Below are positions 14,868 through 33,604 of a stretch of 34,666 nucleotides of DNA, piece by piece. This DNA is from a virus. Lineage: Duplodnaviria; Heunggongvirae; Uroviricota; Caudoviricetes. A program made the position numbers and the translations under genes. The notes below the pieces were generated by a model that saw only the letters and a list, made by a program, of their open reading frames with translations, did not search any database and was not told where the DNA came from. Where the stretch lies: the IMG/VR virus record IMGVR_UViG_2909288124_000006; one strand, written 5' to 3'. Position 1 is the first letter of the stretch; the number at the start of each line of letters is the position of its first letter.

Positions 14868-15318
14868 CCCACGTCACATCCTGGAATACATGCGACCAGT
14901 CGCCTTCGGAAGAGGGCAGACGGGGTTTTGGCTCCGGCAGGTGTTCTGCCTGCGGTGTGCCCTGACTGTTGCGCGTAATGCGAACGCGTTCCCGCAGGGG
15001 GAGCGTAAACAGGAGATCGGCGCTGTCATCGTCATTGATAACGGCGGAGAATTTGATGTCCTGATTACGCTCCGGATTGAGCAACAACTGTGGCTGATTT
15101 TCGGATAACCACGCCAGCAGCGGCAGCGTGAGGTCGTCCAGCTCCCCGGCGTAATCCATGACAAACATCACCATCTGATAGCGGTAAACAAACGAGGGCG
15201 TTTCTCCGGTCGTTTCAATGTTGCCGCTCTCCACGAAAATGGTGAATTTTTCCGGATTAGCCTGGCACCATCGGCATGAACGGGTCATGGCTTCACGCAG
15301 GGAATCAGTTTTCAGCAT
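14851..15318 (-). CDS. R: Tail completion protein R
   Basis: 155 aa resembling P2 gpR (MLKTDSLR..., LAWLSENQP). Confidence 0.8.
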   Translation of the reverse strand: MLKTDSLREAMTRSCRWCQANPEKFTIFVESGNIETTGETPSFVYRYQMVMFVMDYAGELDDLTLPLLAWLSENQPQLLLNPERNQDIKFSAVINDDDSADLLFTLPLRERVRITRNSQGTPQAEHLPEPKPRLPSSEGDWSHVFQDVTWDESDG

Positions 15319-15625
15319 GGTTGTTATCCTCGTTGTTCAGTCGTTGCAGCCTGCGCTGTTCCAGTAATTCAATGGCCCGTTTATCCGCGTTACAGGTTTC
15401 AAGTGCATCCAGAAGGCGGTCGCCCCATATACCGAGATTTCCCCATGTGGGAGTGTCAGGGAAGGGGGGAGGCATTACCGGTATGGTCAGCGTCTGCGGT
15501 ATAAGCCGGACTGACGGCGCTGGCCGTGGCGCGTTCTGCGTGCCTGCGCAACCTGTCAGTAAAACGAGCGTCAGGCAAAGCGTGGGCGCATTCATCTTTT
15601 GCAATATCGTTGCGTAGCTGTTCAC
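15305..15625 (-). CDS. lysC: Outer-membrane lipoprotein o-spanin (LysC/Rz1-like), starting inside lysB in another frame
   Basis: Lipobox LLTGC followed by Pro-rich region; GTG start at 15625 with SD GGAGAGG; overlaps lysB and R. Confidence 0.6.
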   Translation of the reverse strand: MNSYATILQKMNAPTLCLTLVLLTGCAGTQNAPRPAPSVRLIPQTLTIPVMPPPFPDTPTWGNLGIWGDRLLDALETCNADKRAIELLEQRRLQRLNNEDNNHAEN

Positions 15626-15863
15626 GTCTGGCCTCTCCGTCCTGATTTCGCTGTTGATTTTCCACGCGGAGTTGCGTCAGCACCTGCTGCATATCCTGTA
15701 CCCCGGCGCTGATGATATTCAGGGTGTCGGCGGTACTTTTCAGGGTGCTGGCCTGCGCTTCGTTTCTGGCGTTCTCCCGGCCAAGCGACCATGACAGACG
15801 CATGGATGTTCCCCATCCGGCAATCAGAAGGAAAGCGACACCCAGCGTGGGCCAGAGCTTCAT
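15456..15863 (-). CDS. lysB: Inner-membrane spanin (LysB/Rz-like)
   Basis: N-terminal TM helix then coiled-coil-like region; start at ATG 15863 (MKLWPTLG) overlapping endolysin stop. Confidence 0.7.
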   Translation of the reverse strand: MKLWPTLGVAFLLIAGWGTSMRLSWSLGRENARNEAQASTLKSTADTLNIISAGVQDMQQVLTQLRVENQQRNQDGEARREQLRNDIAKDECAHALPDARFTDRLRRHAERATASAVSPAYTADADHTGNASPLP

Positions 15864-16252
15864 GCCGGATAGGCTCCGTGTGGTAACTGAAAATGCGGTC
15901 CGTCTTTCAGGGTCTTCCAGTCGCCGCCCCATTCCACCGGAATATTCAGTTCCCGGCTGGCTTGTCTGAATGCTGCTGCGATTTTTTCGTACAGCGGCCA
16001 TTCCCATGACACCTGGCTGCCGATATAAGCCACAACATCCACGGCATGCCCCGTAAGGTGGCGGCTGTTCATGGTCTGGCTCTTACCCGTGGCCACCAGT
16101 TGCTTCTGGCGGTAACGGCTGCGCAACCCTTCGGTGATACCAAAATCCACTTCCGAGATTTCCAGTGCCCGTCGGGTCACTTTCACCAGATCAGGATTTA
16201 CGCCCTGCAAATTCTTTTCGCTCCGGCTGCTGAATTTAAATGTGTTGCTCAT
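15860..16252 (-). CDS. Endolysin, peptidase M15 (VanY/L-Ala-D-Glu peptidase-like) family
   Basis: 130 aa with H..D...WGGDW...HFQ motif arrangement typical of M15 peptidases. Confidence 0.8.
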   Translation of the reverse strand: MSNTFKFSSRSEKNLQGVNPDLVKVTRRALEISEVDFGITEGLRSRYRQKQLVATGKSQTMNSRHLTGHAVDVVAYIGSQVSWEWPLYEKIAAAFRQASRELNIPVEWGGDWKTLKDGPHFQLPHGAYPA

Positions 16253-16572
16253 TCGTCCTTCTCCTTCACCCTGCGATTAAAGGCCGCAATAACCTTGTCG
16301 CGTGCTTTCTCTGCCCCCATAAAACCGATTGATGCGCCGATAAACGTCACGGCATCTTCAGGAAACCCGAAGAAGCGCAACGACCCGGCCACGGCCATGG
16401 CAAGAACGCCGCACGCCAGCGATCCCGTTACGGTCTGAACCAGTGTTCGTCCGTCATAAAGACTCATCAGCGCGGAAATGCTGACCGCCGCGCCTACTGC
16501 ATACACCGTTGGCAGGTGGTCAAAGAGCCACGCAATAACCTGCTCTGTGATCCCTGTTTGAATGGTGCTCAC
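16249..16572 (-). CDS. Holin (three predicted TM helices)
   Basis: GTG start at 16572 with SD GGGGGGAG just after X stop; hydrophobic segments; lysis-cassette position; ORF-track N-terminal extension rejected. Confidence 0.6.
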   Translation of the reverse strand: MSTIQTGITEQVIAWLFDHLPTVYAVGAAVSISALMSLYDGRTLVQTVTGSLACGVLAMAVAGSLRFFGFPEDAVTFIGASIGFMGAEKARDKVIAAFNRRVKEKDE

Positions 16573-16574
16573 TG

Positions 16575-16775
16575 CTACTCCCCCCACAACTGAATCATTT
16601 CTCGTTTCTTCTTCTCCGGCTCCGGCATCTCCACTTCCTGCCCGGCGTCCAGAAATACCTGCTGACAGAGTCCGGGGTTGGCATCCAGCACCTTTTCGGT
16701 GACGCCCTGCGTCGTGCCGTAGTACCGGAAACAGAGCGAATCCACGGTGTCGCCTTCCAGTGCCTTCACTTTCAT
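16575..16775 (-). CDS. X: Tail protein X
   Basis: 66 aa from MKVKALEGDTVDSLCFRYYG resembling P2 gpX. Confidence 0.75.
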   Translation of the reverse strand: MKVKALEGDTVDSLCFRYYGTTQGVTEKVLDANPGLCQQVFLDAGQEVEMPEPEKKKREMIQLWGE

Positions 16776-17278
16776 CAGCACAATTCCGCAAAGATTCGCG
16801 GGCGACACAGAATGTCAGAGATGGCCCAGCTCACATCGCGCCACAAATCCGATGTCTGTATATCCAGTGCGTCCGCCCGGCGGTCGCCCTTGTCCGTTGT
16901 GTCCGCATCGCGGTAACGCTCCAGAATCAGGGCGCGCGTGGCGGTATAAACAGCATTGCGCCAGTGCCAGAGATTGACGCTTTCTCCGTTAATTTCGGGT
17001 GCCGGAACATCGGCCAGCGTCTGATGGCCAGCTGCCTGCTGTTCCTGCTGCCATGCTTCCAGCTCGCGGGTAACGTGTGCCACAGCCCCGGTGGCAGTAT
17101 GCAGCAGGCGGGAGGTGGTCACGCGGCCCGGCAGTCGTACCGCCAGACGCAGCTCGCGCAGCACAATATCCGGCCAGAATGCACCCGCTGAAATGCGGGT
17201 ATCGCCATCATCGGTATCGGTGATGTCGTCCTCTGCGGGTCTGGGTTCAGTTCTGGCAACCATACTCATGGGGTTCAC
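16775..17278 (-). CDS. L: Head completion/stabilisation protein L
   Basis: Synteny between M and X; size consistent with gpL. Confidence 0.7.
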   Translation of the reverse strand: MNPMSMVARTEPRPAEDDITDTDDGDTRISAGAFWPDIVLRELRLAVRLPGRVTTSRLLHTATGAVAHVTRELEAWQQEQQAAGHQTLADVPAPEINGESVNLWHWRNAVYTATRALILERYRDADTTDKGDRRADALDIQTSDLWRDVSWAISDILCRPRIFAELC

Positions 17279-24201: not shown

Positions 24202-24513
24202 TTACTCAGGAAATAACGCCCGGATATTCCCAGCCATCTGGCTGGTTATCTTAGCCACTGGTGCAGACTGTGCTTCAAACTTTTTTGAGCTGATTTGTGT
24301 CACAGGTAACATCTCATCATCAGCCCATGCGGCCAGTCGGTAAGCCTCTGCCGGATTCGTCTTCAGAAGTGCCAGCCCGGCCAGAAAAGCCACGCGTTGG
24401 CCGCTTTTGCGGGCTTCTGGTGTAAGGCTGTCCAGCCAGGCGCATGCTTCTCCTTCGTTCTTGACGGCAGCTGGCTTCAGATAGAAACTTATTCTTCTGG
24501 TTGGTGTCGTCAT
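24202..24513 (-). CDS. parR: ParR-like centromere-binding adaptor (type II partition)
   Basis: 103 aa directly downstream of parM; ...VAFLAGLALL... resembles R1 ParR region. Confidence 0.7.
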   Translation of the reverse strand: MTTPTRRISFYLKPAAVKNEGEACAWLDSLTPEARKSGQRVAFLAGLALLKTNPAEAYRLAAWADDEMLPVTQISSKKFEAQSAPVAKITSQMAGNIRALFPE

Positions 24514-24517
24514 TGGT

Positions 24518-25477
24518 TTACTCCTTGTTCATTGCGTACAGCCCATTAACCAGAGCAAATTGTGGCCCCCCGTCCGCGATGAAAGTCGCATTAACTCCGC
24601 AGGCTTCGCGGATAGCGGGTGCCACAATCTCCGCCCCGCCACCGACAACCATCACCCGCCCGTAACCCGAAAAAACCGCCAGCGCGCGGATCACGCGTTG
24701 TTTCAGTGTTTCTTCCTTTTCACGAATAACCGCCATCAGGCTGGCGTAATGCGCGTCATTGTGGATGTGCTGGCGCAGCCAGGCTTCATCATGGCGATGT
24801 TCGATAATGGTATTGGCGATGTGGTGACTGGTGCGCATACCGTTAGTGGCCATCACCGACAGTACGGCATCGGCCATAAGAGAAACGCCTACGTGTGGAT
24901 CGCAAAACAGCTGGCTGATACCTGCCAGTTGCCCCTGAACCTTTGCCACATCCAGCGTGGTTCCGCCCAAATCCACAATCAGCAGGGATTCAAACGGACT
25001 CATGTCAGCCAGAGCCTTAAAGCCAGCCGGAATGGATTCAGGCATAACCCGCACGTTACAGATAGTGAATGCTTCGCCGTTCTGGTACTCCACCGGGCGC
25101 ATAACGTTCGCTTTTTTGCGGTTGATGTTGGCCATGTCCGGCTGTGCGTTTGTGTCGAAATACTCGCTCAGTGGCAGGGTGACAACCACATCCACCTCCT
25201 GTGGCGTGATGCCTGATTTGACCAGTGCGTGATGAATGGCAATGACATTCACATCGCTGTACTGGTATTGCGTGTCGGTCGTCTGGACAAAGCGATCGCT
25301 GACCGGATCAAAACCGTAGCGCACGCCATCAAGCATGTAGTTCGCGGGCTGCGTGCCACTGAACGGCGCAGACCATTCCGACTTGAAACTGTTCGGGCTG
25401 ATGGCGTTGCGGCGTTCGCCGTTCTCAGTCCATGCCAGCTTGATGTTGGTGGAGCCGTCGTCGATACAAATTTTCAT
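24518..25477 (-). CDS. parM: ParM/StbA actin-like segregation ATPase
   Basis: 319 aa; IDDGSTNIKL, YSDVNVIAIHHAL, VMPESIPAG, DLGGTTLD motifs matching plasmid R1 ParM as remembered. Confidence 0.9.
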   Translation of the reverse strand: MKICIDDGSTNIKLAWTENGERRNAISPNSFKSEWSAPFSGTQPANYMLDGVRYGFDPVSDRFVQTTDTQYQYSDVNVIAIHHALVKSGITPQEVDVVVTLPLSEYFDTNAQPDMANINRKKANVMRPVEYQNGEAFTICNVRVMPESIPAGFKALADMSPFESLLIVDLGGTTLDVAKVQGQLAGISQLFCDPHVGVSLMADAVLSVMATNGMRTSHHIANTIIEHRHDEAWLRQHIHNDAHYASLMAVIREKEETLKQRVIRALAVFSGYGRVMVVGGGAEIVAPAIREACGVNATFIADGGPQFALVNGLYAMNKE

Positions 25478-25508: not shown

Positions 25509-25623
25509 TTTACGGGATTCTGAAATCCCGTTTTTGCCTGTTTTGTGTGCGCTTCATATATCGCGGCGCGTTTTTTGCTCATTTACGGGATTTGTGAATC
25601 CCGTTTCTGTCTGTTTTTTGTTT
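25509..25623. repeat. Two about 40-bp direct repeats, each containing an 8-bp-stem palindrome (acgggatt N4 aatcccgt) followed by a T-rich tract; parC-like centromere/operator candidate
   Basis: Copies at 25509-25547 and 25581-25623; first is 32 bp upstream of parM start, second lies in the last codons of gene A. Confidence 0.55.
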
Positions 25624-28376
25624 CCACTGGTCAGGCTACCCCGCAGCAGGTCTGCTTTGCGGTGGGCGCGTTCAGTGGTTTCACTGATTCTCTGTGCGTG
25701 CTCTGCGTCACGGATGGCGCGCAGCATGTCAGAAAGCACGGTAACGGGGGTTTTCATGGTGTTCTGGTCCTGCTGAAGTGTGGATGCCAGACGTGCGGCG
25801 GCTTCGGGGTCTGATGCCCCCAGTTGTTCCAGATAGCTGGCGACCGGGTTATGGCGGATCTCTGTGCTGCTTACGCCGTGATTACGGCTCAGGCGCTGCC
25901 AGAGCTGCGTGATTCGGCTGTCCGGGCGGGTATCCGGTTTGCGTACAATTTCAAATCCCTGCGGTGCAATGATGCTGCCGTCAACGTACAGGCTGCCGCC
26001 CCGTAACAGGTGCTGCATCTGCTGTTCACCGATATGCAGGCCGAGAGATTCGGCAGATTCCCGCCATTCTTTAGCGAGTAATTCGTGGTTATCAGGCAAA
26101 GGCCGCTGCTGTTTGCGGCTCTGTGTCCAGCTCTGCATTTCATCACTGCTGTTTTTTGCCTGTTTGTCACGAAGCGAACGCATCAGCGCCCGGCGTTCGT
26201 GCCGTTTCAGTGAGCGCATCCATTCGTTCACTTCAACGCCATCAGGGAGCTGCGGCCACGGTGCTGGCCGTTCTTCCGGCTGTTCTGTCCCGTTGTTGTT
26301 CGTTTCCTGTACACGGGGACAGTTATTGCCACGAGTCCAAGGGGCGGCAGGGCCGCCCTGAAGGTCAAAACCATTTTCGCGGGCGCTGTCTTCCGCTTCC
26401 GGTTTACGTCTTACCAGCTTCCAGTTATCCGGATGTGTGCACACACGGGAAGACTCCCCGATGAGTGGTGACCAGATCCCGTAAATCTGTACGCTCTGTT
26501 CGCCGTAATCGTTCAGCTCATCTGCGAGGTCGTAGGCGGTGCGAATCAGGTAGTCTTTGCGTGGAACAAGTACGCCGCCCTGTTTTTCAATGTAGGAGGC
26601 AAAACACCCGGCATCAGCGGCAGCGAGCACTGCATCCATTGCGTCATCCTTCAGTCGTTGCGGGCCTTCCGGGTTGCGTGCCATCTGGCTGGCAAGGCGG
26701 CGCAGTTCACGCCACACCTGACGGGAGGGGATGCCAAAGAACTGGAACTGGCGGACCCGGTGAAGGCGCGCCCAGCCGATGGCGCGCTCCACGCTCTCGG
26801 CCATTGATTTTCCGGTTTCGTGGTCAACGCGTGGCTTGCCCGTTTTCGGGTCGATACCATCCACGGCGCGGCTGTCCAGGTTCTTTCCGATGTAGGTGGC
26901 GATGTAGCTGGTTGGCGTGCCTTTTGAGCCGTCGACGTACTCCGCTTTAAAACGCGGAGTTATGTCATCGCCCAGCTCGTGGCGGTCTTCCTGAATGGCA
27001 ATATCGCAGACGTGGGACACGATGGTTTCAATCTCGTCCGGATGTGCAAAGACCATCATATGCCAGTGCACAGTGCCGTCATGGTGAGGCTCCACCGTGC
27101 GGATGCCATACCAGCGAAGACCGTCGCGGTTCAGTTTTTTGCGGACCGCCGCAAAAAACGTGTTAACCAGGTAATCGCTGGAGTCGCGCATGGTGGCCCC
27201 GTTCCATTTGGGATTCGGATGACCGTTCTCTGTTGTGGCGTGGTATTTTGACGGGCAGGTGACAGTCAGAAACACCGCTTTGTCGCCACGGGCTTCGGCC
27301 AGAAGTTCCAGCCCCTTCATGGTGGCCATCATTTCTGCCTTACGGTGAACCGGGTTACTTACTCCCGCGTAATACACTGTCTCGAGATCAATCGTGAACC
27401 CGTCTTCGTTTTCCAGCATGAAACTTTTCAGGAAATCGCGTGTTTTCTCGCGCTGTGCGCGAAACTCGCTTAATGCGTCCTGGCTCAGATAGGGCGATGT
27501 TTTTCTGGAAACCAGACAGGCGGCGCGGAGTTGTTCTTCTCTCCACTCGCAACGTAACAGCCACAGTTTGCGTTTCCACCATTCCGCACAGGTCAGGCGA
27601 AGGATTGCGCCCGGCAGCAGCTCCGTGTCCGGTTCGTTCCTCCGGTCTTTGTCTGTTGTCAGTGCGTCATAATGTGGAGGCATGATGTGCAGGTGTAACG
27701 CCATGCGGGCCAGCATCTGATACGCCTTCAGCGTTACATCCATGGTCAGTTCGCCATCGGTCGCGCCAAAGCCATCGCAGAGTTTTTCGAAGGTGCTGCT
27801 GAACATCGCCGCCGTCATGGTGGCCAGCGTCTGTATCTGGTGTTTGTTGAGCTGCGGCAGGTAAAGCAAATCGTCCAGGCGTTCGCGTCCGGCAAGGGAG
27901 CGATACCCCGGTGTCAGCCAGCGTCCGTCAGTGCGATCCAGACGTTCGAATATTTTGCGCAGGGTTCCGCGTGCATAGCGTTCCGCCTGCCAGCTCTTTT
28001 TGCATTTCCGGTGATCGGCTTCCTGTTTTTTGCGCAGGAAGGAGAGGTGGCGAATAAGCGGATCGCGCAGATAGGACGGCAGCAGGCGCAGCGAGGCCAT
28101 GGCTTCATCCACCGCGCCGCGTGCCTGTTTTCTGGCGTCTCCTGCCAGTGTGATGGTTTTGTCCTGTTTTTCCTGTGCGTCCAGGCTTTTATTAATCAGG
28201 TTGCCCAGCGGCGTGGCGGAGAACGCCGCATCAGCCATTTCTTGGCGTCGCTCGTTCTCTGCCCGGTAGGCATCCAGCCAGGAGGAAAGCGCGGATTCAG
28301 GAGCGGGGATCCCCGTTCCTTCACGCCCCACTGCGTGGCGCGGTTGTTGCCAGTCCCTGATGTACTCTGCCGTCAT
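25554..28376 (-). CDS. A: Replication initiation endonuclease A (rolling-circle, P2 gpA family)
   Basis: 940 aa; VEPHHDGTVHWHMMVF and YIATYIGKN motifs typical of gpA. Confidence 0.9.
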   Translation of the reverse strand: MTAEYIRDWQQPRHAVGREGTGIPAPESALSSWLDAYRAENERRQEMADAAFSATPLGNLINKSLDAQEKQDKTITLAGDARKQARGAVDEAMASLRLLPSYLRDPLIRHLSFLRKKQEADHRKCKKSWQAERYARGTLRKIFERLDRTDGRWLTPGYRSLAGRERLDDLLYLPQLNKHQIQTLATMTAAMFSSTFEKLCDGFGATDGELTMDVTLKAYQMLARMALHLHIMPPHYDALTTDKDRRNEPDTELLPGAILRLTCAEWWKRKLWLLRCEWREEQLRAACLVSRKTSPYLSQDALSEFRAQREKTRDFLKSFMLENEDGFTIDLETVYYAGVSNPVHRKAEMMATMKGLELLAEARGDKAVFLTVTCPSKYHATTENGHPNPKWNGATMRDSSDYLVNTFFAAVRKKLNRDGLRWYGIRTVEPHHDGTVHWHMMVFAHPDEIETIVSHVCDIAIQEDRHELGDDITPRFKAEYVDGSKGTPTSYIATYIGKNLDSRAVDGIDPKTGKPRVDHETGKSMAESVERAIGWARLHRVRQFQFFGIPSRQVWRELRRLASQMARNPEGPQRLKDDAMDAVLAAADAGCFASYIEKQGGVLVPRKDYLIRTAYDLADELNDYGEQSVQIYGIWSPLIGESSRVCTHPDNWKLVRRKPEAEDSARENGFDLQGGPAAPWTRGNNCPRVQETNNNGTEQPEERPAPWPQLPDGVEVNEWMRSLKRHERRALMRSLRDKQAKNSSDEMQSWTQSRKQQRPLPDNHELLAKEWRESAESLGLHIGEQQMQHLLRGGSLYVDGSIIAPQGFEIVRKPDTRPDSRITQLWQRLSRNHGVSSTEIRHNPVASYLEQLGASDPEAAARLASTLQQDQNTMKTPVTVLSDMLRAIRDAEHAQRISETTERAHRKADLLRGSLTSGNKKQTETGFTNPVNEQKTRRDI

Positions 28377-28820: not shown

Positions 28821-29051
28821 TTAATGGAGTTTGTTTTGCTGCTGGATGAGATCCTGAAGAGACAGGAGGTCTTCCGCCAGATAGCTGAATACAGCGGCGC
28901 AGTAGTCGGCTGAAATAGTGCTGTTGAGTCTGTGCAATGTGTTGGATTGCATGATAAAGGCGATGTGTGCAGCGCGGGTGAGTCTGCGATCGATTTCAGT
29001 CTGGATGTGACGACGCTCCGCGATAGTGCGGTGCTGTTTGCGGTTTGCCAT
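28821..29051 (-). CDS. Hypothetical basic protein (76 aa)
   Basis: ORF with SD AAGAGG; its SD lies inside a repeated motif. Confidence 0.4.
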   Translation of the reverse strand: MANRKQHRTIAERRHIQTEIDRRLTRAAHIAFIMQSNTLHRLNSTISADYCAAVFSYLAEDLLSLQDLIQQQNKLH

Positions 29052-29227
29052 GATATGTGGCCTCTTGTAGTAAGTTGTGAAAACTCACCATCCAGAGCTG
29101 CGAAACTGTGGGTGGCGAGACGTACGAGGTTCGCAGTACCGGCTACAAGAGATCCCGGCCCGACCGAAGTCGGCCCCGTACACCCCGCCATAATTCTGAC
29201 GCGAAAAAAACGTGGCAATACAGTACG

Positions 29228-29355
29228 CACAAAAAAACCGCTGGCGCGGTTGTGCGCTCTTGTAGTCAGCAGGCTGCGAAACCCGGCACCCGTTTTATGA
29301 GGTGCAGCGGAAATGTAACCTGACTGATTGCGGCATGGCAAGCGGTTTTTTTGTG
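29228..29355. repeat. Perfect 15-bp inverted repeat (cacaaaaaaaccgct / agcggtttttttgtg) separated by 98 bp
   Basis: Arms at 29228-29242 and 29341-29355. Confidence 0.6.
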
Positions 29356-29418
29356 AGAACGGCATACTAAAAAATCCTGATACTGCTCCGGCCAGCGGTT
29401 TTCACTGGCCGGGTTTAA

Positions 29419-30249
29419 TTACTTCACCGGAACAAACGGAACAGCGGTGTTACTGGTCATGTATTGCGGTAGCGTGCCGTTCCATTTGTTAATCGCTTCC
29501 AGCTCCATAACGCCGGGATTCTGGCGCAGAGCTTCACCGCGTAAACGAATGGCGTCGGCTTCAGCCTGGGCTTTTGTGCGAATGGCATCGGCCTGTCCGG
29601 CTGCTTCTGCGCGTAGCATGTTGGCTTCTGCTTCGCGCTGCTTGACTTCCTGTTCGCGTTGCAGGGTTTTCTGGTTTGCCGTGACTTTGGCGTTAATGCT
29701 GTCGATAACGGTTGGCGGATATTCCGGTTTACCGACATAAGAGAGGCTCATGACCTGAATGCCGATGGGGGTCATCTCTTCCTGAATATCTTTAAGTGCT
29801 GAATCCAGCAGTTCAGACTTACCACCGTCGATAAACTTATCGGTGGTCATTTTGCTGGCCAGTCGGTTGAGTGCATCGGCGATCTTCTGGCGCAGGTCAG
29901 TGTCGGTAATGTCATCCACGCCTTTGCGGTAGGTCTGAAACACTGTAGTAACTTTGGATGGATCAACCTTGTAGGCCACACCGATGTGATAGCCGATGGT
30001 TGTGCCGTCACTCATCTGGAAGCTGAACGGCTCATCGTAGGTCTTCATTTGTTTGAAGGTCGGGAAGATGTAAACCTCGGTATTCCAGCCAGTCCAGTAG
30101 CGGCCAACGCCAACCACTTCGCCGACGCCTTTGTCGTCGCCCAGTTTGTTGACTTTGATGCCCACATTACCTGGCTCAACGCGATCGCAACCAACCAGCA
30201 GGATGGCGGCAAAAAGCGGGAGAATCTGAAAGAGTTTGAATTTCTTCAT
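29419..30249 (-). CDS. SPFH/band-7 domain lipoprotein (lipobox LLVGC with Asp at +2, predicted inner-membrane retention)
   Basis: 276 aa; SPFH-like N-terminal domain then Ala/Glu/Gln-rich coiled-coil; hairpin downstream at about 29383-29408. Confidence 0.8.
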   Translation of the reverse strand: MKKFKLFQILPLFAAILLVGCDRVEPGNVGIKVNKLGDDKGVGEVVGVGRYWTGWNTEVYIFPTFKQMKTYDEPFSFQMSDGTTIGYHIGVAYKVDPSKVTTVFQTYRKGVDDITDTDLRQKIADALNRLASKMTTDKFIDGGKSELLDSALKDIQEEMTPIGIQVMSLSYVGKPEYPPTVIDSINAKVTANQKTLQREQEVKQREAEANMLRAEAAGQADAIRTKAQAEADAIRLRGEALRQNPGVMELEAINKWNGTLPQYMTSNTAVPFVPVK

Positions 30250-30449
30250 TGTTTGATTTCCTTGATGTACTTACTGAAAAGGCGAACAACGCCTGCCGGG
30301 TACAGCATGGCAATAAAAATGCCCAGCAATACCAGGAAGGAGCTGTCTGATGAAATCATTCGGGGGAGTAGTCCTGCATACAGAATGAGAGAGACGAGGA
30401 CGCATACCAGCGCCCACATGTATGCGCGAAACCAGGTCTTTTTGTTCAT
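30246..30449 (-). CDS. Small two-TM membrane protein, translationally coupled (ATGA) to the SPFH gene
   Basis: 67 aa, two hydrophobic helices; stop overlaps SPFH start. Confidence 0.6.
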   Translation of the reverse strand: MNKKTWFRAYMWALVCVLVSLILYAGLLPRMISSDSSFLVLLGIFIAMLYPAGVVRLFSKYIKEIKQ

Positions 30450-30460
30450 ATCGCGGTCCT

Positions 30461-30760
30461 TTACTGGTTAAGGAAAAAATCGAAAACGTTGTCGATGCGT
30501 TGCAGCAGCTCCTGCTGCATTGCTTCCGGCGTTTCTGATTCACCTGGTGACTCCAGCGTCGCGCAAAAATCCTTGATTTCATGATGGAGTGTCAGACGAA
30601 TGGCAGGAGCCATGGTTCTGGCGTGCTCCAGCTCATCCAGCAGTGCCAGCACGGCAGATGGCGAGAGCATTGCGCGAAACGCCAGTAATTTTTGATGCGT
30701 TGCCATTCGTTGCAGGTCAGTCGCCAGTTCGCGTAGTTCCTGGTGGTTGATGGTGCTCAT
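30461..30760 (-). CDS. Hypothetical protein (99 aa)
   Basis: ORF in early operon, overlaps upstream gene stop. Confidence 0.5.
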   Translation of the reverse strand: MSTINHQELRELATDLQRMATHQKLLAFRAMLSPSAVLALLDELEHARTMAPAIRLTLHHEIKDFCATLESPGESETPEAMQQELLQRIDNVFDFFLNQ

Positions 30761-31002
30761 GCTCTGGCTTCCTTCAGTAGCTGGTTAAACAAGTGAGTAA
30801 GCGGGTTGCCACACCCGAACTGCATCGGGTTTACCTGGTAAGAAAAGCGACCACCTGTTTTGCGCTCTTTTCTTATGACTGAACCGCTGCGCCAGAGTCG
30901 GCGTAACTCCGCATTAATGGCTGTGGTTGGGGTATTCAGTGCTGCGGCGATTTCTCCACCGCTACAACCCGGATTGGCGGCGATGTAGTCCAGAATGGTC
31001 AT
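30757..31002 (-). CDS. Small winged-helix-like DNA-binding protein (81 aa)
   Basis: ILDYIAANPGCSGGEIAAALN... resembles HTH; assignment tentative. Confidence 0.45.
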   Translation of the reverse strand: MTILDYIAANPGCSGGEIAAALNTPTTAINAELRRLWRSGSVIRKERKTGGRFSYQVNPMQFGCGNPLTHLFNQLLKEARA

Positions 31003-31202
31003 CTGCGTGACTCCTGTACCAGTCTGATAAGATTCACCTGCACCACGTTGGTGGCGCAGAAGTAAGTGTCGTCAGTGAGATAAATGTGATGCGCGTCAGG
31101 TTGCGAACGGTGACGGTCGATCGTTTTAATCAGCCGTTCGTCAACTTCGTATTCACGCCCTCTGGAGGTGAAACGAATGACGGAAAAACGCTTAATTGCC
31201 AT
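30999..31202 (-). CDS. Hypothetical protein (67 aa)
   Basis: ORF in early operon with overlapping stop/start. Confidence 0.45.
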   Translation of the reverse strand: MAIKRFSVIRFTSRGREYEVDERLIKTIDRHRSQPDAHHIYLTDDTYFCATNVVQVNLIRLVQESRR

Positions 31203-31225
31203 TGCGCCCCCTTTGTCCAGTAACC

Positions 31226-31636
31226 CTATGCGTTAAATACGGTGTGTTGGGCGTCATCAATGAATGCAACTTGAGAGCGCTCTATCAGGCGGAGATTTGT
31301 CAGAATCTCTGATTCCCTTATGGGGTGAGGAGTGATCAGGTATTTATCCTGTAATCCGGCGATAATGGTGTATCGCTGTAGCTCCGAGCCAATTGTGTAA
31401 ATAAGGCGTCCGGTGTTAGACAAATCCAGTCCGGTGACTGGTTGTGTTCTGAGAACCGCCAGTTCAGCATCCTGTTTTGCGATAATTTCTGCTGCTTCTG
31501 CCGTGACTCTTGCGACTATCAGTGTGTGGGTTGCGACGTCCATATGTGCATTTGCCACGGCTTTTTTCGCTACTTCGTTTTCTGTCTTTGAAATTTCTTT
31601 CAGTACTCTGATGATACCTTCTTCTTTTGCGTGCAT
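31226..31636 (-). CDS. Hypothetical protein (136 aa)
   Basis: ORF with SD ACGGAG. Confidence 0.5.
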   Translation of the reverse strand: MHAKEEGIIRVLKEISKTENEVAKKAVANAHMDVATHTLIVARVTAEAAEIIAKQDAELAVLRTQPVTGLDLSNTGRLIYTIGSELQRYTIIAGLQDKYLITPHPIRESEILTNLRLIERSQVAFIDDAQHTVFNA

Positions 31637-31726
31637 TTTTGTATCTCCGTTATTTGCGTGTGCGAATACCTCCGTTAATACGGATGGTTTTCACGCTTTC
31701 TTATTTAATTTGATGTTTTATTTGTA

Positions 31727-31843
31727 TCGTTATTCACCAGTGAAAAAGCGTTCAATCTTTTTTACTGAATGAATAATTCGCATAATCCCAATGGCGCAGG
31801 CCACCGAAATAATCAGAACAAGCCATGAGATAAATATACTCAT
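31727..31843 (-). CDS. 38-aa hydrophobic single-TM peptide (MSIFISWLVLIISVACAIGIMRIIHSVKKIERFFTGE), coupled by ATGA to upstream ORF
   Basis: Hand-translated; below ORF-track size cutoff; ATG overlaps TGA of the 81-aa ORF. Confidence 0.4.
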
Positions 31844-32085
31844 GCAATATTCCCCAGCTTATACGGTTCAATATGTTCCCCGCATTCTGCGGCACAGATC
31901 AGCTCGGAAAGTTCGTTAAGTGCATCCAGATCATCAGCGTAAAAAGCCACGTCATACAGACTCCGGATTGCCCTGGTCAATGAGTCACGGGCTGCACGTT
32001 CAGCATGAGCGCCTGATGCGCTTAAGCGAAAATAAAAACGCTCAAGTGCTTTGTTAATGAGAGTTTTATATTCTTTGCCCATCAC
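31840..32085 (-). CDS. Hypothetical protein (81 aa)
   Basis: ORF; coupled to downstream small peptide. Confidence 0.5.
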   Translation of the reverse strand: MMGKEYKTLINKALERFYFRLSASGAHAERAARDSLTRAIRSLYDVAFYADDLDALNELSELICAAECGEHIEPYKLGNIA

Positions 32086-32770: not shown

Positions 32771-33022
32771 TTATGCTGCTTTACCGCTGATATTTCCGTT
32801 TCGTCTGCCACTTGTTGGCTTAAACAAAAACAGACGGTTTTCCCAGTCGTGCCATTCCTGAGGTGCGTTTTCGATGAGGCGATCGCATGCTTCATCCCAC
32901 GCTTTTCTGTTGATGTAGAGTTCAGCGTTTCCGCCTGGTTTGAGAGGGTCCGCCATATACACCGCAGGTAGCTTTCCTGCTTTGGCCATGCTTACGATGG
33001 CGTCAACGGTCTTTCCGATATA
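32771..33022 (-). CDS. cox: Cox-like excisionase/early repressor (start uncertain; frame is open up to 33235)
   Basis: IGKTVDAIVSMAKAGKLPAVYMADP resembles P2 Cox IGKSTGAVRRMIDKGKLPVIDMTDP; ATG 33022 has SD AAGGA; divergent from C. Confidence 0.6.
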   Translation of the reverse strand, partial: YIGKTVDAIVSMAKAGKLPAVYMADPLKPGGNAELYINRKAWDEACDRLIENAPQEWHDWENRLFLFKPTSGRRNGNISGKAA

Positions 33023-33268
33023 CATCGCAAATCCTTCTTTTGACAGGAGATGCGAGGGATTTTCTGAAAGTCGAATCTCTTCACGTTCACGTGCTTTGCG
33101 TCCTGTTTTTTGATGCTCCCCTTCTGGCATTTCTGGCAGGTGATCGCATCGTGTTCCGCAAAGTGACTCAGGCGCGTTTTGAGTGCTTTCTTGCATCTGA
33201 TATCCTCCGCCATTGGTGCTTTTTCTAATTGGCACTAGTTGGAACCACTTAGAACATTCTTTTGCTGT

Positions 33269-33295
33269 TCATATGTGGTGTTAATCTACACATAT
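33269..33295. promoter_or_regulatory. Inverted repeat catatgtg N11 cacatatg in the cox/C intergenic switch region; operator candidate
   Basis: 8-bp perfect arms 15 bp upstream of C start; overlaps C ribosome-binding region. Confidence 0.4.
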
Positions 33296-33310
33296 GTAGG
33301 AGTTTGTCAA

Positions 33311-33604
33311 ATGGACATTCCTCAAAAAATTCGCGTCATGCGTAAATCTGAAGATCTGACTCAGCGGGAATTCGCTGATATGATTGGAATTTCTTATTCT
33401 GCTCTGACCAGTTATGAGTATGGTCGTAACCTTCCTGGTCTTGAGATCACTATCAAGCTTTTCAAGCACCCGAGATTTTCTAAATACCGCGACTGGTTTT
33501 TGTTTGATGAAGTTGCACCCAAGGCCGGGCAGGTTGTACCGGCTCTCGCACACATTGGGCAAGACGAAGCGGAATCATCCCGCTCCGGCAAGAAAACTGG
33601 TTAA
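33311..33604 (+). CDS. C: Immunity repressor C
   Basis: VMRKSEDLTQREFADMIGISYSALTSYEYGRN... and C-terminal PALAHIGQDE...SGKKTG resemble P2 C; start ATG 33311 with SD AGGAG. Confidence 0.85.
   Translation: MDIPQKIRVMRKSEDLTQREFADMIGISYSALTSYEYGRNLPGLEITIKLFKHPRFSKYRDWFLFDEVAPKAGQVVPALAHIGQDEAESSRSGKKTG

Follow-up and report, generated by a model that had tools for sequence, protein, structure and literature searches.

What does a phage gain from a lipoprotein of the SPFH/band 7 type whose gene starts within the stop codon of a gene for a small membrane protein? The question is raised by positions 29,419–30,449 of a viral DNA of 34,666 nucleotides (IMG/VR record IMGVR_UViG_2909288124_000006; Caudoviricetes), which we analysed as a whole and call the window. 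The window is a P88-like (Xuanwuvirus, P2-like, Peduoviridae) prophage, with 97.6% identity to Escherichia phage P88 over this stretch, and in P88 the small membrane protein and the SPFH protein have counterparts annotated as 'membrane protein' (SF19_gp11) and 'lipoprotein' (SF19_gp12), respectively. SPFH cages, such as those of HflK/C, prohibitin, stomatin, flotillin and erlin, currently draw attention in membrane biology, and for the most part it is unclear what is enclosed in them. Band_7, phrog_200 and phrog_1130 were already known as function-less families; the two window proteins are direct members of the two PHROG families, whose entries record neither a function nor the conserved pairing. 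Moreover, in the literature searched we found no description of a lipid-anchored SPFH subfamily, of a partner with two transmembrane (TM) helices and a loop motif, of their frequent fusions or of their wide carriage by phages. An earlier sequence-only reading of the locus had seen in it a two-protein membrane module, not a canonical P2 gene, that could tune FtsH-dependent lysis/lysogeny or act in superinfection exclusion or abortive infection. The explanation that we favour, with somewhat more confidence than doubt, is that the pair is a self-contained membrane-scaffold module, carried as an optional early (lytic) cassette, which would cage a patch of the inner membrane.

Two Overlapping Genes

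The gene of the small protein, hereafter the partner (67 aa; 30246..30449), and the SPFH gene (276 aa; 29419..30249) are both located on the minus strand, as the sequence-only reading had it. The plus-strand letters at 30246–30249 are tcat, read as ATGA on the minus strand, in which the TGA of the partner and the ATG of the SPFH gene overlap by 4 nt, the arrangement of a translationally coupled pair. A Shine-Dalgarno-like AGGA is found ahead of both starts; that of the partner gene (30457..30460, minus strand) directly follows the TAA (30461..30463) of the upstream Ead/Ea22-like gene. The same 4-nt overlap between partner and SPFH genes was observed in phiP27, MY01, phi1026b and a Pseudomonas phage, and overlaps of 8–20 nt in Paxi and RCS47.

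The possibility that the partner is a chance open reading frame (ORF) or an artefact was rejected, given its matches to phrog_1130 (E = 1.3e-22) and to a hidden Markov model (HMM) of 18 diverse partners (E = 3.9e-21), and a reversed-ORF control with 0 matches. A 103-aa ORF overlapping it (30271..30582), which appeared as the upstream partner in many loci, is instead spurious, and the partner HMM was used in its place.

The SPFH Lipoprotein and Its Predicted Fold

The N-terminus of the SPFH protein is a signal peptide ending in a lipobox (residues 1–21, MKKFKLFQILPLFAAILLVGC; 30187..30249, minus strand) followed by DR, with a basic n-region, a hydrophobic core and the lipobox L-V-G-C. The arrangement MKKFK-LFQILPLFAAILLV-GC, with L-V-G-C21, agrees with the lipoprotein pattern [LVI][ASTVI][GAS]C, and lipidation is predicted from the sequence. 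The codon of Cys21 lies at 30187..30189 and is followed by those of Asp22 at +2, as previously noticed, and Arg23 at +3. The lipobox Cys is invariant in 13 diverse phage homologues, and a lipobox-like motif occurs in 109 of the 139 full-length representatives. Asp at +2, which under the E. coli +2 rule stands for Lol avoidance, is present in the window protein and in the homologues of phiP27, RCS47, MY01 and phi1026b; on an effect of Arg at +3 on Lol avoidance no paper was found. Across the family the +2 residue is T (27), S (23), D (13), G (11) or another, E and F included, and Asp is not a family feature. Thus, the retention in the inner membrane that had been read from Asp at +2 can be kept as a prediction for the window protein and its enterobacterial relatives, and not for the family at large.

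The Pfam Band_7 profile (PF01145) matched residues 23–209 (29623..30183, minus strand) over profile positions 2–176 of 176, with E = 5.7e-31 and 108.4 bits against a cut-off of 23.6, which places the protein among the SPFH/Band 7 proteins; the match to phrog_200 ('lipoprotein') had E = 1.8e-112. In the AlphaFold2 model of the monomer (mean pLDDT 77), a beta-rich SPFH1 (strands in 21–95) and an alpha/beta SPFH2 (97–176, helices in 97–162 and a strand at 164–176) are followed by a long Ala/Glu-rich helix (179–243; 29521..29715, minus strand), which aligns with the coiled-coil (CC) regions of HflK and prohibitin-2 and would correspond to the coiled-coil wall element of SPFH cages. Near the C-terminus, the motif K255-W-N-G-x-L-P261 (29467..29487, minus strand), in which K255, W256, G258 and P261 are invariant in 13 diverse homologues, is a signature of the family and a possible cage cap.

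A Foldseek search of this model against the PDB returned whole subunits of erlin1/2 (E = 9e-14), prohibitin, HflK/C, stomatin, flotillin, QmcA-YbbJ and the major vault protein, with E of about 1e-13 to 1e-11 for erlin, prohibitin, HflK/C and stomatin; the top matches were SPFH proteins facing away from the cytosol. At the sequence level, the only similarity found in the PDB was to HflK, weak (E = 1e-4, residues 115–241), and the similarity to HflK/C is restricted to the generic SPFH2 and coiled-coil region. It has been reported that SPFH proteins assemble membrane-abutting cages, whose subunit number tracks the length of CC1 (y = 0.1782x + 10.22) (PMC12624060); by a rough extrapolation, a helix of at most 65 aa might give about 22 subunits or fewer. 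Membership of HflK/HflC was rejected, since the protein scored 25.7 bits against a cut-off of 134.4 for HflC TIGR01932, 23.5 against 159.4 for HflK TIGR01933, 20.7 against 660 for NF008181 (HflK) and 18.8 against 427 for NF008259 (HflC), missing the cut-offs by more than 100 bits; in NCBIfam only sub-threshold matches to HflK, HflC and FloT were obtained.

Many records name this SPFH lipoprotein 'serine protease', as in phiP27 (gene L05, at 2480..3307 of L002, where L-numbers denote the comparison loci of this analysis), in Stx2 phages and in Erwinia phage Pastis, and some name it 'transposase'; both look like annotation errors. The first name was rejected on the SPFH domain and coiled coil and on the lack of any protease domain in Pfam and in the AlphaFold2 model; as a guess, the label was perhaps transferred from the ClpP-type NfeD partners of stomatin operons.

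The Partner Protein

By hydropathy, the partner has two hydrophobic segments (about residues 8–28 and 37–57) with basic ends, which bears out the two-helix membrane protein of the sequence-only reading and is consistent with an N-in/C-in topology. Its sole PHROG match was phrog_1130 ('membrane protein'), to which PHROG gives the category 'moron/host takeover'. The two helices are separated by a loop with the motif G-x3-P-x-[LM]-[IV]-S-[SA]-x-[DS], here GLLPRMISSDS (residues 26–36; 30342..30374, minus strand), in which Pro29 is invariant and which ranges from Enterobacterales phages to Leptospira and Saprospirales. A periplasmic position is predicted for the loop by the positive-inside rule and the natural fusions described below.

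When the partner and 8 diverse homologues were compared with Pfam down to E <= 1, only random noise from TM proteins was obtained, with no NfeD and no holin, and a word-indexed homology search with the partner returned only near-identical E. coli 'hypothetical proteins'. An NfeD (PF01957) identity was rejected on the lack of a match at this threshold and on the length of 67 aa, too short for an NfeD/OB-fold domain, and a holin identity on the lack of Pfam (E <= 1) and PHROG holin matches and on a position outside the lysis cassette. In phiP27 and RCS47 the small gene is unannotated, and there too a two-TM ORF overlaps the SPFH start.

Conserved Pairing, Fusions and Partner Exchange

The partner HMM was used to search 24,398 stop-to-stop ORFs of all comparison loci and gave 149 matches at E <= 1e-3, against 0 on reversed ORFs. 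The partner overlaps the SPFH start in all the near-identical loci (84/84), and in 59 of 90 diverse SPFH loci it is found within 60 nt upstream on the same strand. The pairing was seen across P2-like, P1-like, lambdoid, N4-like, rV5-like, Pseudomonas, Burkholderia and Stenotrophomonas phages, as well as in several bacterial phyla; the two genes, whose co-occurrence in other prophages was proposed earlier as a check together with a profile search of both proteins, do co-occur in many other phages. The window fits a general description of the module as a two-TM partner with P-x-[LM]-[IV]-S-[SA]-x-[DS] that is upstream of, overlapping or fused to a lipobox SPFH protein.

Single-ORF fusions of the two proteins were found in 5 genome loci (L137 5719..6936, L152 3659..4777, L154 5623..6825, L158 5542..6846 and L159 5659..6861) and in 19 of the top 150 representatives in a 50%-identity library. 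Their layout is the partner, a K/R-rich linker, a signal-like TM helix keeping the lipobox, and the SPFH domain; with this layout both the loop of the partner and the SPFH domain would face the periplasm, and the fusions argue for a physical complex in the inner membrane. The retained internal lipobox (e.g., VAGC followed by S, or GGC followed by T) raises the question of cleavage and lipidation at an internal signal-like helix. In one representative, P0148 (344 aa), the partner-like segment is found at the C-terminus instead.

The distances among partners and among SPFH proteins are correlated (Mantel r = 0.75, p = 0.001, 66 non-redundant pairs), and a correlation has also been reported between NfeD and SPFH trees (PMC2636767). 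Among the P88, Stx2/phiP27 and P1-like versions, the mature SPFH part shows 86–92% DNA identity, while none is detectable in the signal peptide and partner gene, and the similarity begins almost exactly at the lipobox Cys codon (window 30190..30249 compared with L002 and L003). This suggests that the lipobox junction is a recombination boundary, at which a unit made of the partner plus the signal peptide may be swapped.

Two variations of the pair were also observed. In rV5-like phages one more gene comes between the SPFH gene and the partner upstream of it, namely a 54–57-aa soluble ORF (MLLNLKASTWEKLQALARSKNKSAASYVAKIVDEYV...; L085 1820..1984, PVP-SE1 gp116; L088 1341..1514, Hena1_00680), ribbon-helix-helix-like by eye. 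In the species-representative genomes behind L095 (5237..6003) and L096, which are Shigella flexneri and E. coli chromosomes, the pair is uncoupled by an insertion of about 770 bp, placed exactly at the border of the two genes and carrying IS1-like InsA/InsB ORFs in the opposite orientation.

Distribution in Phages and Bacteria

By tblastn, SPFH homologues were found in 412 of 50,697 phage records. The virulent carriers include N4-like (MY01, Pastis, Tribble, PMBT57, Paxi), rV5-like (PVP-SE1, Hena1), LUZ24-like (U47, Clew-1) and phiCbK-like phages, and in virulent phages the module is located among early or middle genes; further carriers are Ounavirinae, crAss-like and Lak phages, temperate Burkholderia and Pseudomonas phages, Stx2 and phiP27 lambdoid phages, and P1-like phage-plasmids. 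In the P1-like phage RCS47 (L003 2898..5127) the pair is found among tRNA genes between ban (dnaB) and upl/plp, which looks like an accessory-gene position. In E. coli, the SPFH gene is accessory, being present in 714 of 5,426 complete genomes (~13%), at 417 chromosomal and 389 plasmid places, and the plasmid matches of about 94–112 kb among those listed resemble P1-like phage-plasmids. In the 50%-identity library, the specific SPFH subfamily amounts to ~221 clusters at E <= 1e-30 and 953 at E <= 1e-10.

To extend the comparison to bacteria, one genome per species was scanned with a 7-sequence SPFH alignment, and 80 loci were returned. In about 20 species of Dyella/Rhodanobacteraceae the pair is syntenic, between blaI/blaR1-like genes and hemerythrin plus nrdAB; in Xenorhabdus it is found beside MFS, LysR and FlhA genes, and in Leptospira its neighbours are genes for a succinate dehydrogenase/fumarate reductase flavoprotein and for a member of the beta-lactamase family. 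Prophage or plasmid genes, on the other hand, are its neighbours in Pseudomonas oryzihabitans, Cupriavidus and Morganella. The occurrence in phages and at conserved non-phage chromosomal loci therefore indicates a cellular envelope module that has been repeatedly captured by mobile elements. A housekeeping stomatin operon with no phage linkage, named in the sequence-only reading as the finding that would count against a phage module, is not what we observed, the phage linkage being massive, even if housekeeping-type chromosomal copies do exist.

The Prophage Setting

In the window the pair is located in the early operon, whose genes are all on the minus strand and tightly packed, between the Cox-like regulator gene at its start (32771..33235, minus strand), facing the C-type repressor gene (33239..33604), and the gene of the gpA replication endonuclease at its end (25554..28376, minus strand); the early-operon location previously assigned to the pair is thus correct. 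The gene immediately upstream of the partner is Ead/Ea22-like (30461..30760, minus strand), and between it and the Cox-like gene there are small ORFs and a MarR-type winged helix-turn-helix gene. The 11 nt from the Ead-like stop to the partner ATG leave no room for a promoter, and the minus strand at 30450–32029 gave no sigma-70-like site; because no promoter of its own was found, expression of the pair in a resting lysogen is doubtful.

The whole optional cassette (29356..30460, minus strand; 1.1 kb) comprises the partner, the SPFH gene and, just 3' of the SPFH stop, a GC-rich hairpin, CCGGCCAGTGAAAACCGCTGGCCGG (29388..29412, minus strand). Its borders emerged from blastn against an E. coli prophage with an empty slot (L175) and Citrobacter phage Shae_phiSM (L174), in which homology runs to 29355 and resumes from 30457/30461. 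The hairpin was rejected as a canonical intrinsic terminator, since the U-run is about 13 nt further on, and with neither a promoter site nor an adjacent U-run the cassette is not a classical moron, which has its own promoter and terminator. The whole locus occurs in 134 of the 5,426 complete E. coli genomes; sampled related E. coli prophages have the flanks only, spanning ~1.17 kb (empty slot) or ~1.74 kb, and the cassette is absent from most related Xuanwuvirus prophages, in agreement with the view that this is not a canonical P2 gene. It appears to be dispensable cargo, apparently read from the early promoter.

In Xuanwuvirus prophages, the cargo found between the Ead/Ea22-like gene and isrK varies: this slot can be empty (flanks 18 nt apart, L175 907..924), hold the SPFH pair or, as in the ~1.74-kb version of Shae_phiSM, encode a 183-aa DNA-binding protein (L174 2573..3124). 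Directly 3' of the cassette, isrK (29231..29305, 66.7 bits), the C4 antisense RNA (29108..29195, 78.5 bits) and the gene of a 76-aa 'derepression protein' (28821..29051, P88 annotation), all on the minus strand, make up a P1/P7/P4-style antisense-RNA/antirepressor module inside a P2-like early operon; the non-coding-looking gap downstream of the SPFH gene consists of RNA genes, since isrK and the C4 RNA fill it. Adjoining gpA, the P88 annotation gives a ParM-type plasmid segregation protein (319 aa, 24518..25477) and a small 'partition protein' (24202..24513) on the minus strand, genes that are unusual for an integrated P2-like phage.

Comparison with Known SPFH Systems

With the HflK/HflC-FtsH system of E. 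coli (PDB 7VHP, 7WI3, 9CZ2) the window protein shares the SPFH domain, the long coiled coil and, as predicted, an orientation towards the periplasm from the inner membrane; HflK/C match its fold over the full length and are the best, weak, sequence matches in the PDB and NCBIfam. The differences are a lipid anchor at a lipobox in place of the N-terminal TM helix of HflK/C, a single gene, and presumably a homo-oligomer, in place of K/C heterodimers, and a dedicated two-TM partner. The SPFH-NfeD operons (QmcA-YbbJ, PDB 8Z5G; YqiK-YqiJ; YqfA-YqeZ and YuaG-YuaF of B. subtilis) likewise link an SPFH gene translationally to the gene of a small membrane protein, whereas the partner described here has no NfeD/OB-fold and is no more than a helical hairpin, whose conserved loop is predicted in the periplasm. 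The SPFH domain of QmcA, in spite of the fold match, faces the cytoplasm, unlike the predicted periplasmic domain of the window protein. The module is best called a parallel to the SPFH-NfeD operons. In a survey of 12 prokaryotic SPFH subfamilies (PMC2636767) the lipoprotein type is not described, with 0 occurrences of 'lipoprotein' or 'phage' in the text, and neither is mentioned in a survey of P. aeruginosa SPFH proteins. The cages of prohibitin PHB1/2 and erlin1/2, the best structural matches (9e-14 to 1e-12), are also on the non-cytosolic side of the membrane, and a role in protein quality control, by the enclosure of membrane patches, has been proposed for them (PMC12624060), but they are eukaryotic, TM-anchored and heteromeric, and are only 14–17% identical to the window protein.

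A Proposed Membrane Scaffold

On these grounds we propose that the SPFH protein would be exported, receive a lipid at Cys21 and stay at the inner membrane on its periplasmic face, and that, as do HflK/C, prohibitin, erlin and QmcA, it would oligomerise over a membrane patch, some twenty subunits forming a closed ring or cage. The partner, made in matched amounts by means of the ATGA-coupled start, would insert as an N-in/C-in helical hairpin and contact the SPFH protein through its conserved periplasmic loop, residing in the caged patch or at its rim. We infer lipidation, inner-membrane location, cage formation and partner docking alike; for the location, support comes from Asp at +2 in the case of the window protein, and from the fusions and the integral-membrane partner in that of the family. 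The module would be ancient, cellular in origin and captured by many temperate and virulent phages, and the cassette would be transcribed with the early genes after infection or induction. Being optional and widespread in temperate, virulent and chromosomal settings, it is probably not a lysogeny switch. The benefit would most probably be an insulated or stabilised host inner membrane, or the sequestration of one of the host's inner-membrane proteins, in the course of lytic development, for example as a protection against envelope stress, superinfecting phages or host suicide effectors that attack the membrane. A benefit in lytic growth seems the most likely, because the cassette is apparently read from the early promoter and virulent phages keep the module among early or middle genes; the physiological benefit would nonetheless be the least secure step of the model.

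Several observations weigh against this proposal. No partner was detectable in 26 of the 90 diverse SPFH loci, mostly from Bacteroidota, plus U47, Fifi318, Karma and crAss-like phages, and therefore the SPFH protein can work alone or with another partner. In enterobacterial phages, mature SPFH proteins that are 95–98% identical go with partners of only 18–49% identity; partners are therefore freely exchanged, which fits a loose rather than a tight co-adaptation. The sorting residue at +2 is not conserved, and some family members may sit in the outer membrane. The C-terminus (246–276), the would-be cap, was modelled with low confidence (pLDDT < 50), and both cage formation and partner docking would follow from analogy with other SPFH systems. 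As for the benefit to the phage, no functional study of this SPFH family was found in the searchable literature, where the one related item is the paper on Pasteurella multocida PM0222 taken up below.

Alternative Explanations

An unlikely alternative, and still the one that survives best, is that the pair serves superinfection exclusion or defence, either by blocking incoming phage DNA or as an abortive infection device with the small protein as a caged toxin. The T4 Imm/Sp pair offers an analogy, being an early small inner-membrane protein and a periplasm-facing protein that act on the envelope of the infected cell, but neither Imm nor Sp is an SPFH protein, translational coupling is lacking between them, and no relationship in sequence or fold is to be expected. 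Both window proteins are predicted in the envelope, the slot that the cassette fills in this P2-like prophage is one for variable cargo, PHROG places phrog_1130 in 'moron/host takeover', and early expression would suit exclusion during lytic growth, sensible for virulent phages too. On the other hand, in PADLOC-DB v2 the SPFH protein had no match at E <= 0.1 and the partner matched only PDC-M18B (E = 0.0078, 14 bits, 21 residues); a PADLOC scan of the two proteins and five neighbours gave nothing meaningful, and no publication tying the module to defence was found. In addition, expression in the resting lysogen is doubtful, as said above, and the syntenic Dyella locus and the housekeeping neighbours in Leptospira and Xenorhabdus point to a general membrane role. 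The exclusion or abortive infection suggested by the sequence-only reading is thus conceivable, and it gained no positive evidence from these searches.

A slightly less probable role is that of an FtsH modulator, in which the SPFH cage would bind or compete for host FtsH and alter substrate degradation, biasing lysis/lysogeny or aiding lytic growth. The nearest sequence and fold relatives do include HflK/C and prohibitins, partners of FtsH-type AAA proteases (PMC12624060), the predicted periplasmic orientation is that of HflK/C, and the gene stands in the early operon, the site of the developmental decision. Against this, the HflK/HflC equivalog scores were 19–26 bits with cut-offs of 134–660, the sequence similarity does not extend beyond the generic SPFH2/coiled-coil part, many obligately virulent phages and non-phage chromosomal loci carry the family, and most related Xuanwuvirus prophages do without the cassette. 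Also, P2-type switches use C/Cox and not a CII-type FtsH substrate, and we know of no FtsH-labile CII or CIII analogue in the C/Cox switch. The tuning of FtsH-dependent lysis/lysogeny that had been suggested is consequently not supported as a general role; a modulation of FtsH to some other end than lysogeny would be conceivable.

A lysis-timing device, with the partner as a holin/antiholin-like factor organised or restrained by the SPFH lipoprotein, is very improbable: the partner resembles class II holins in size and topology, and both proteins would be at the inner membrane/periplasm, but it has no holin match in Pfam (E <= 1) or PHROG, the pair is early and not late and has non-phage chromosomal copies, and a complete lysis cassette is found elsewhere in the prophage, about 13 kb away (holin/antiholin 16249..16791, endolysin 15860..16252, Rz 15456..16007, Rz1 15305..15625). 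We give equally little credit to lysogenic conversion by a surface or vesicle lipoprotein benefiting the host through virulence or immune stimulation, on the example of Pasteurella multocida PM0222, a prophage-borne HflK/C-like SPFH protein of 25–35 kDa found in outer-membrane vesicles, which acts in TLR1/2 signalling and whose deletion attenuates virulence (PMC9872710): the gene is indeed carried by Stx2 phages and by phage-plasmids of pathogenic E. coli, but a homology of PM0222 to this family would be a presumption, the cassette has no promoter of its own and lies in a repressed early operon, and virulent phages of non-pathogens commonly carry the family, as do environmental bacteria.

Significance of the Module

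Returning to the membrane scaffold, one narrower version of it, which we regard as a long shot, is that the pair forms a cage shielding the inner membrane of the infected cell from superinfecting genomes or from membrane-disrupting abortive-infection effectors or toxins. If true, this would be an unrecognised class of phage counter-defence or exclusion at the membrane level, common to temperate and virulent phages, and the device would derive from a cellular envelope-maintenance module. For the window itself the result is modest in practice, namely an optional early cassette that stands outside the P2-type lysis/lysogeny circuit. For the family, the pair is a small SPFH system that lends itself to genetics and into which a client is evidently built, present in more than 400 sequenced phages and, on prophages and phage-plasmids, in ~13% of complete E. 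coli genomes; a function would annotate thousands of genes now called 'hypothetical' or 'lipoprotein', or misnamed 'serine protease', and could throw light on the management of the host inner membrane by infecting phages.

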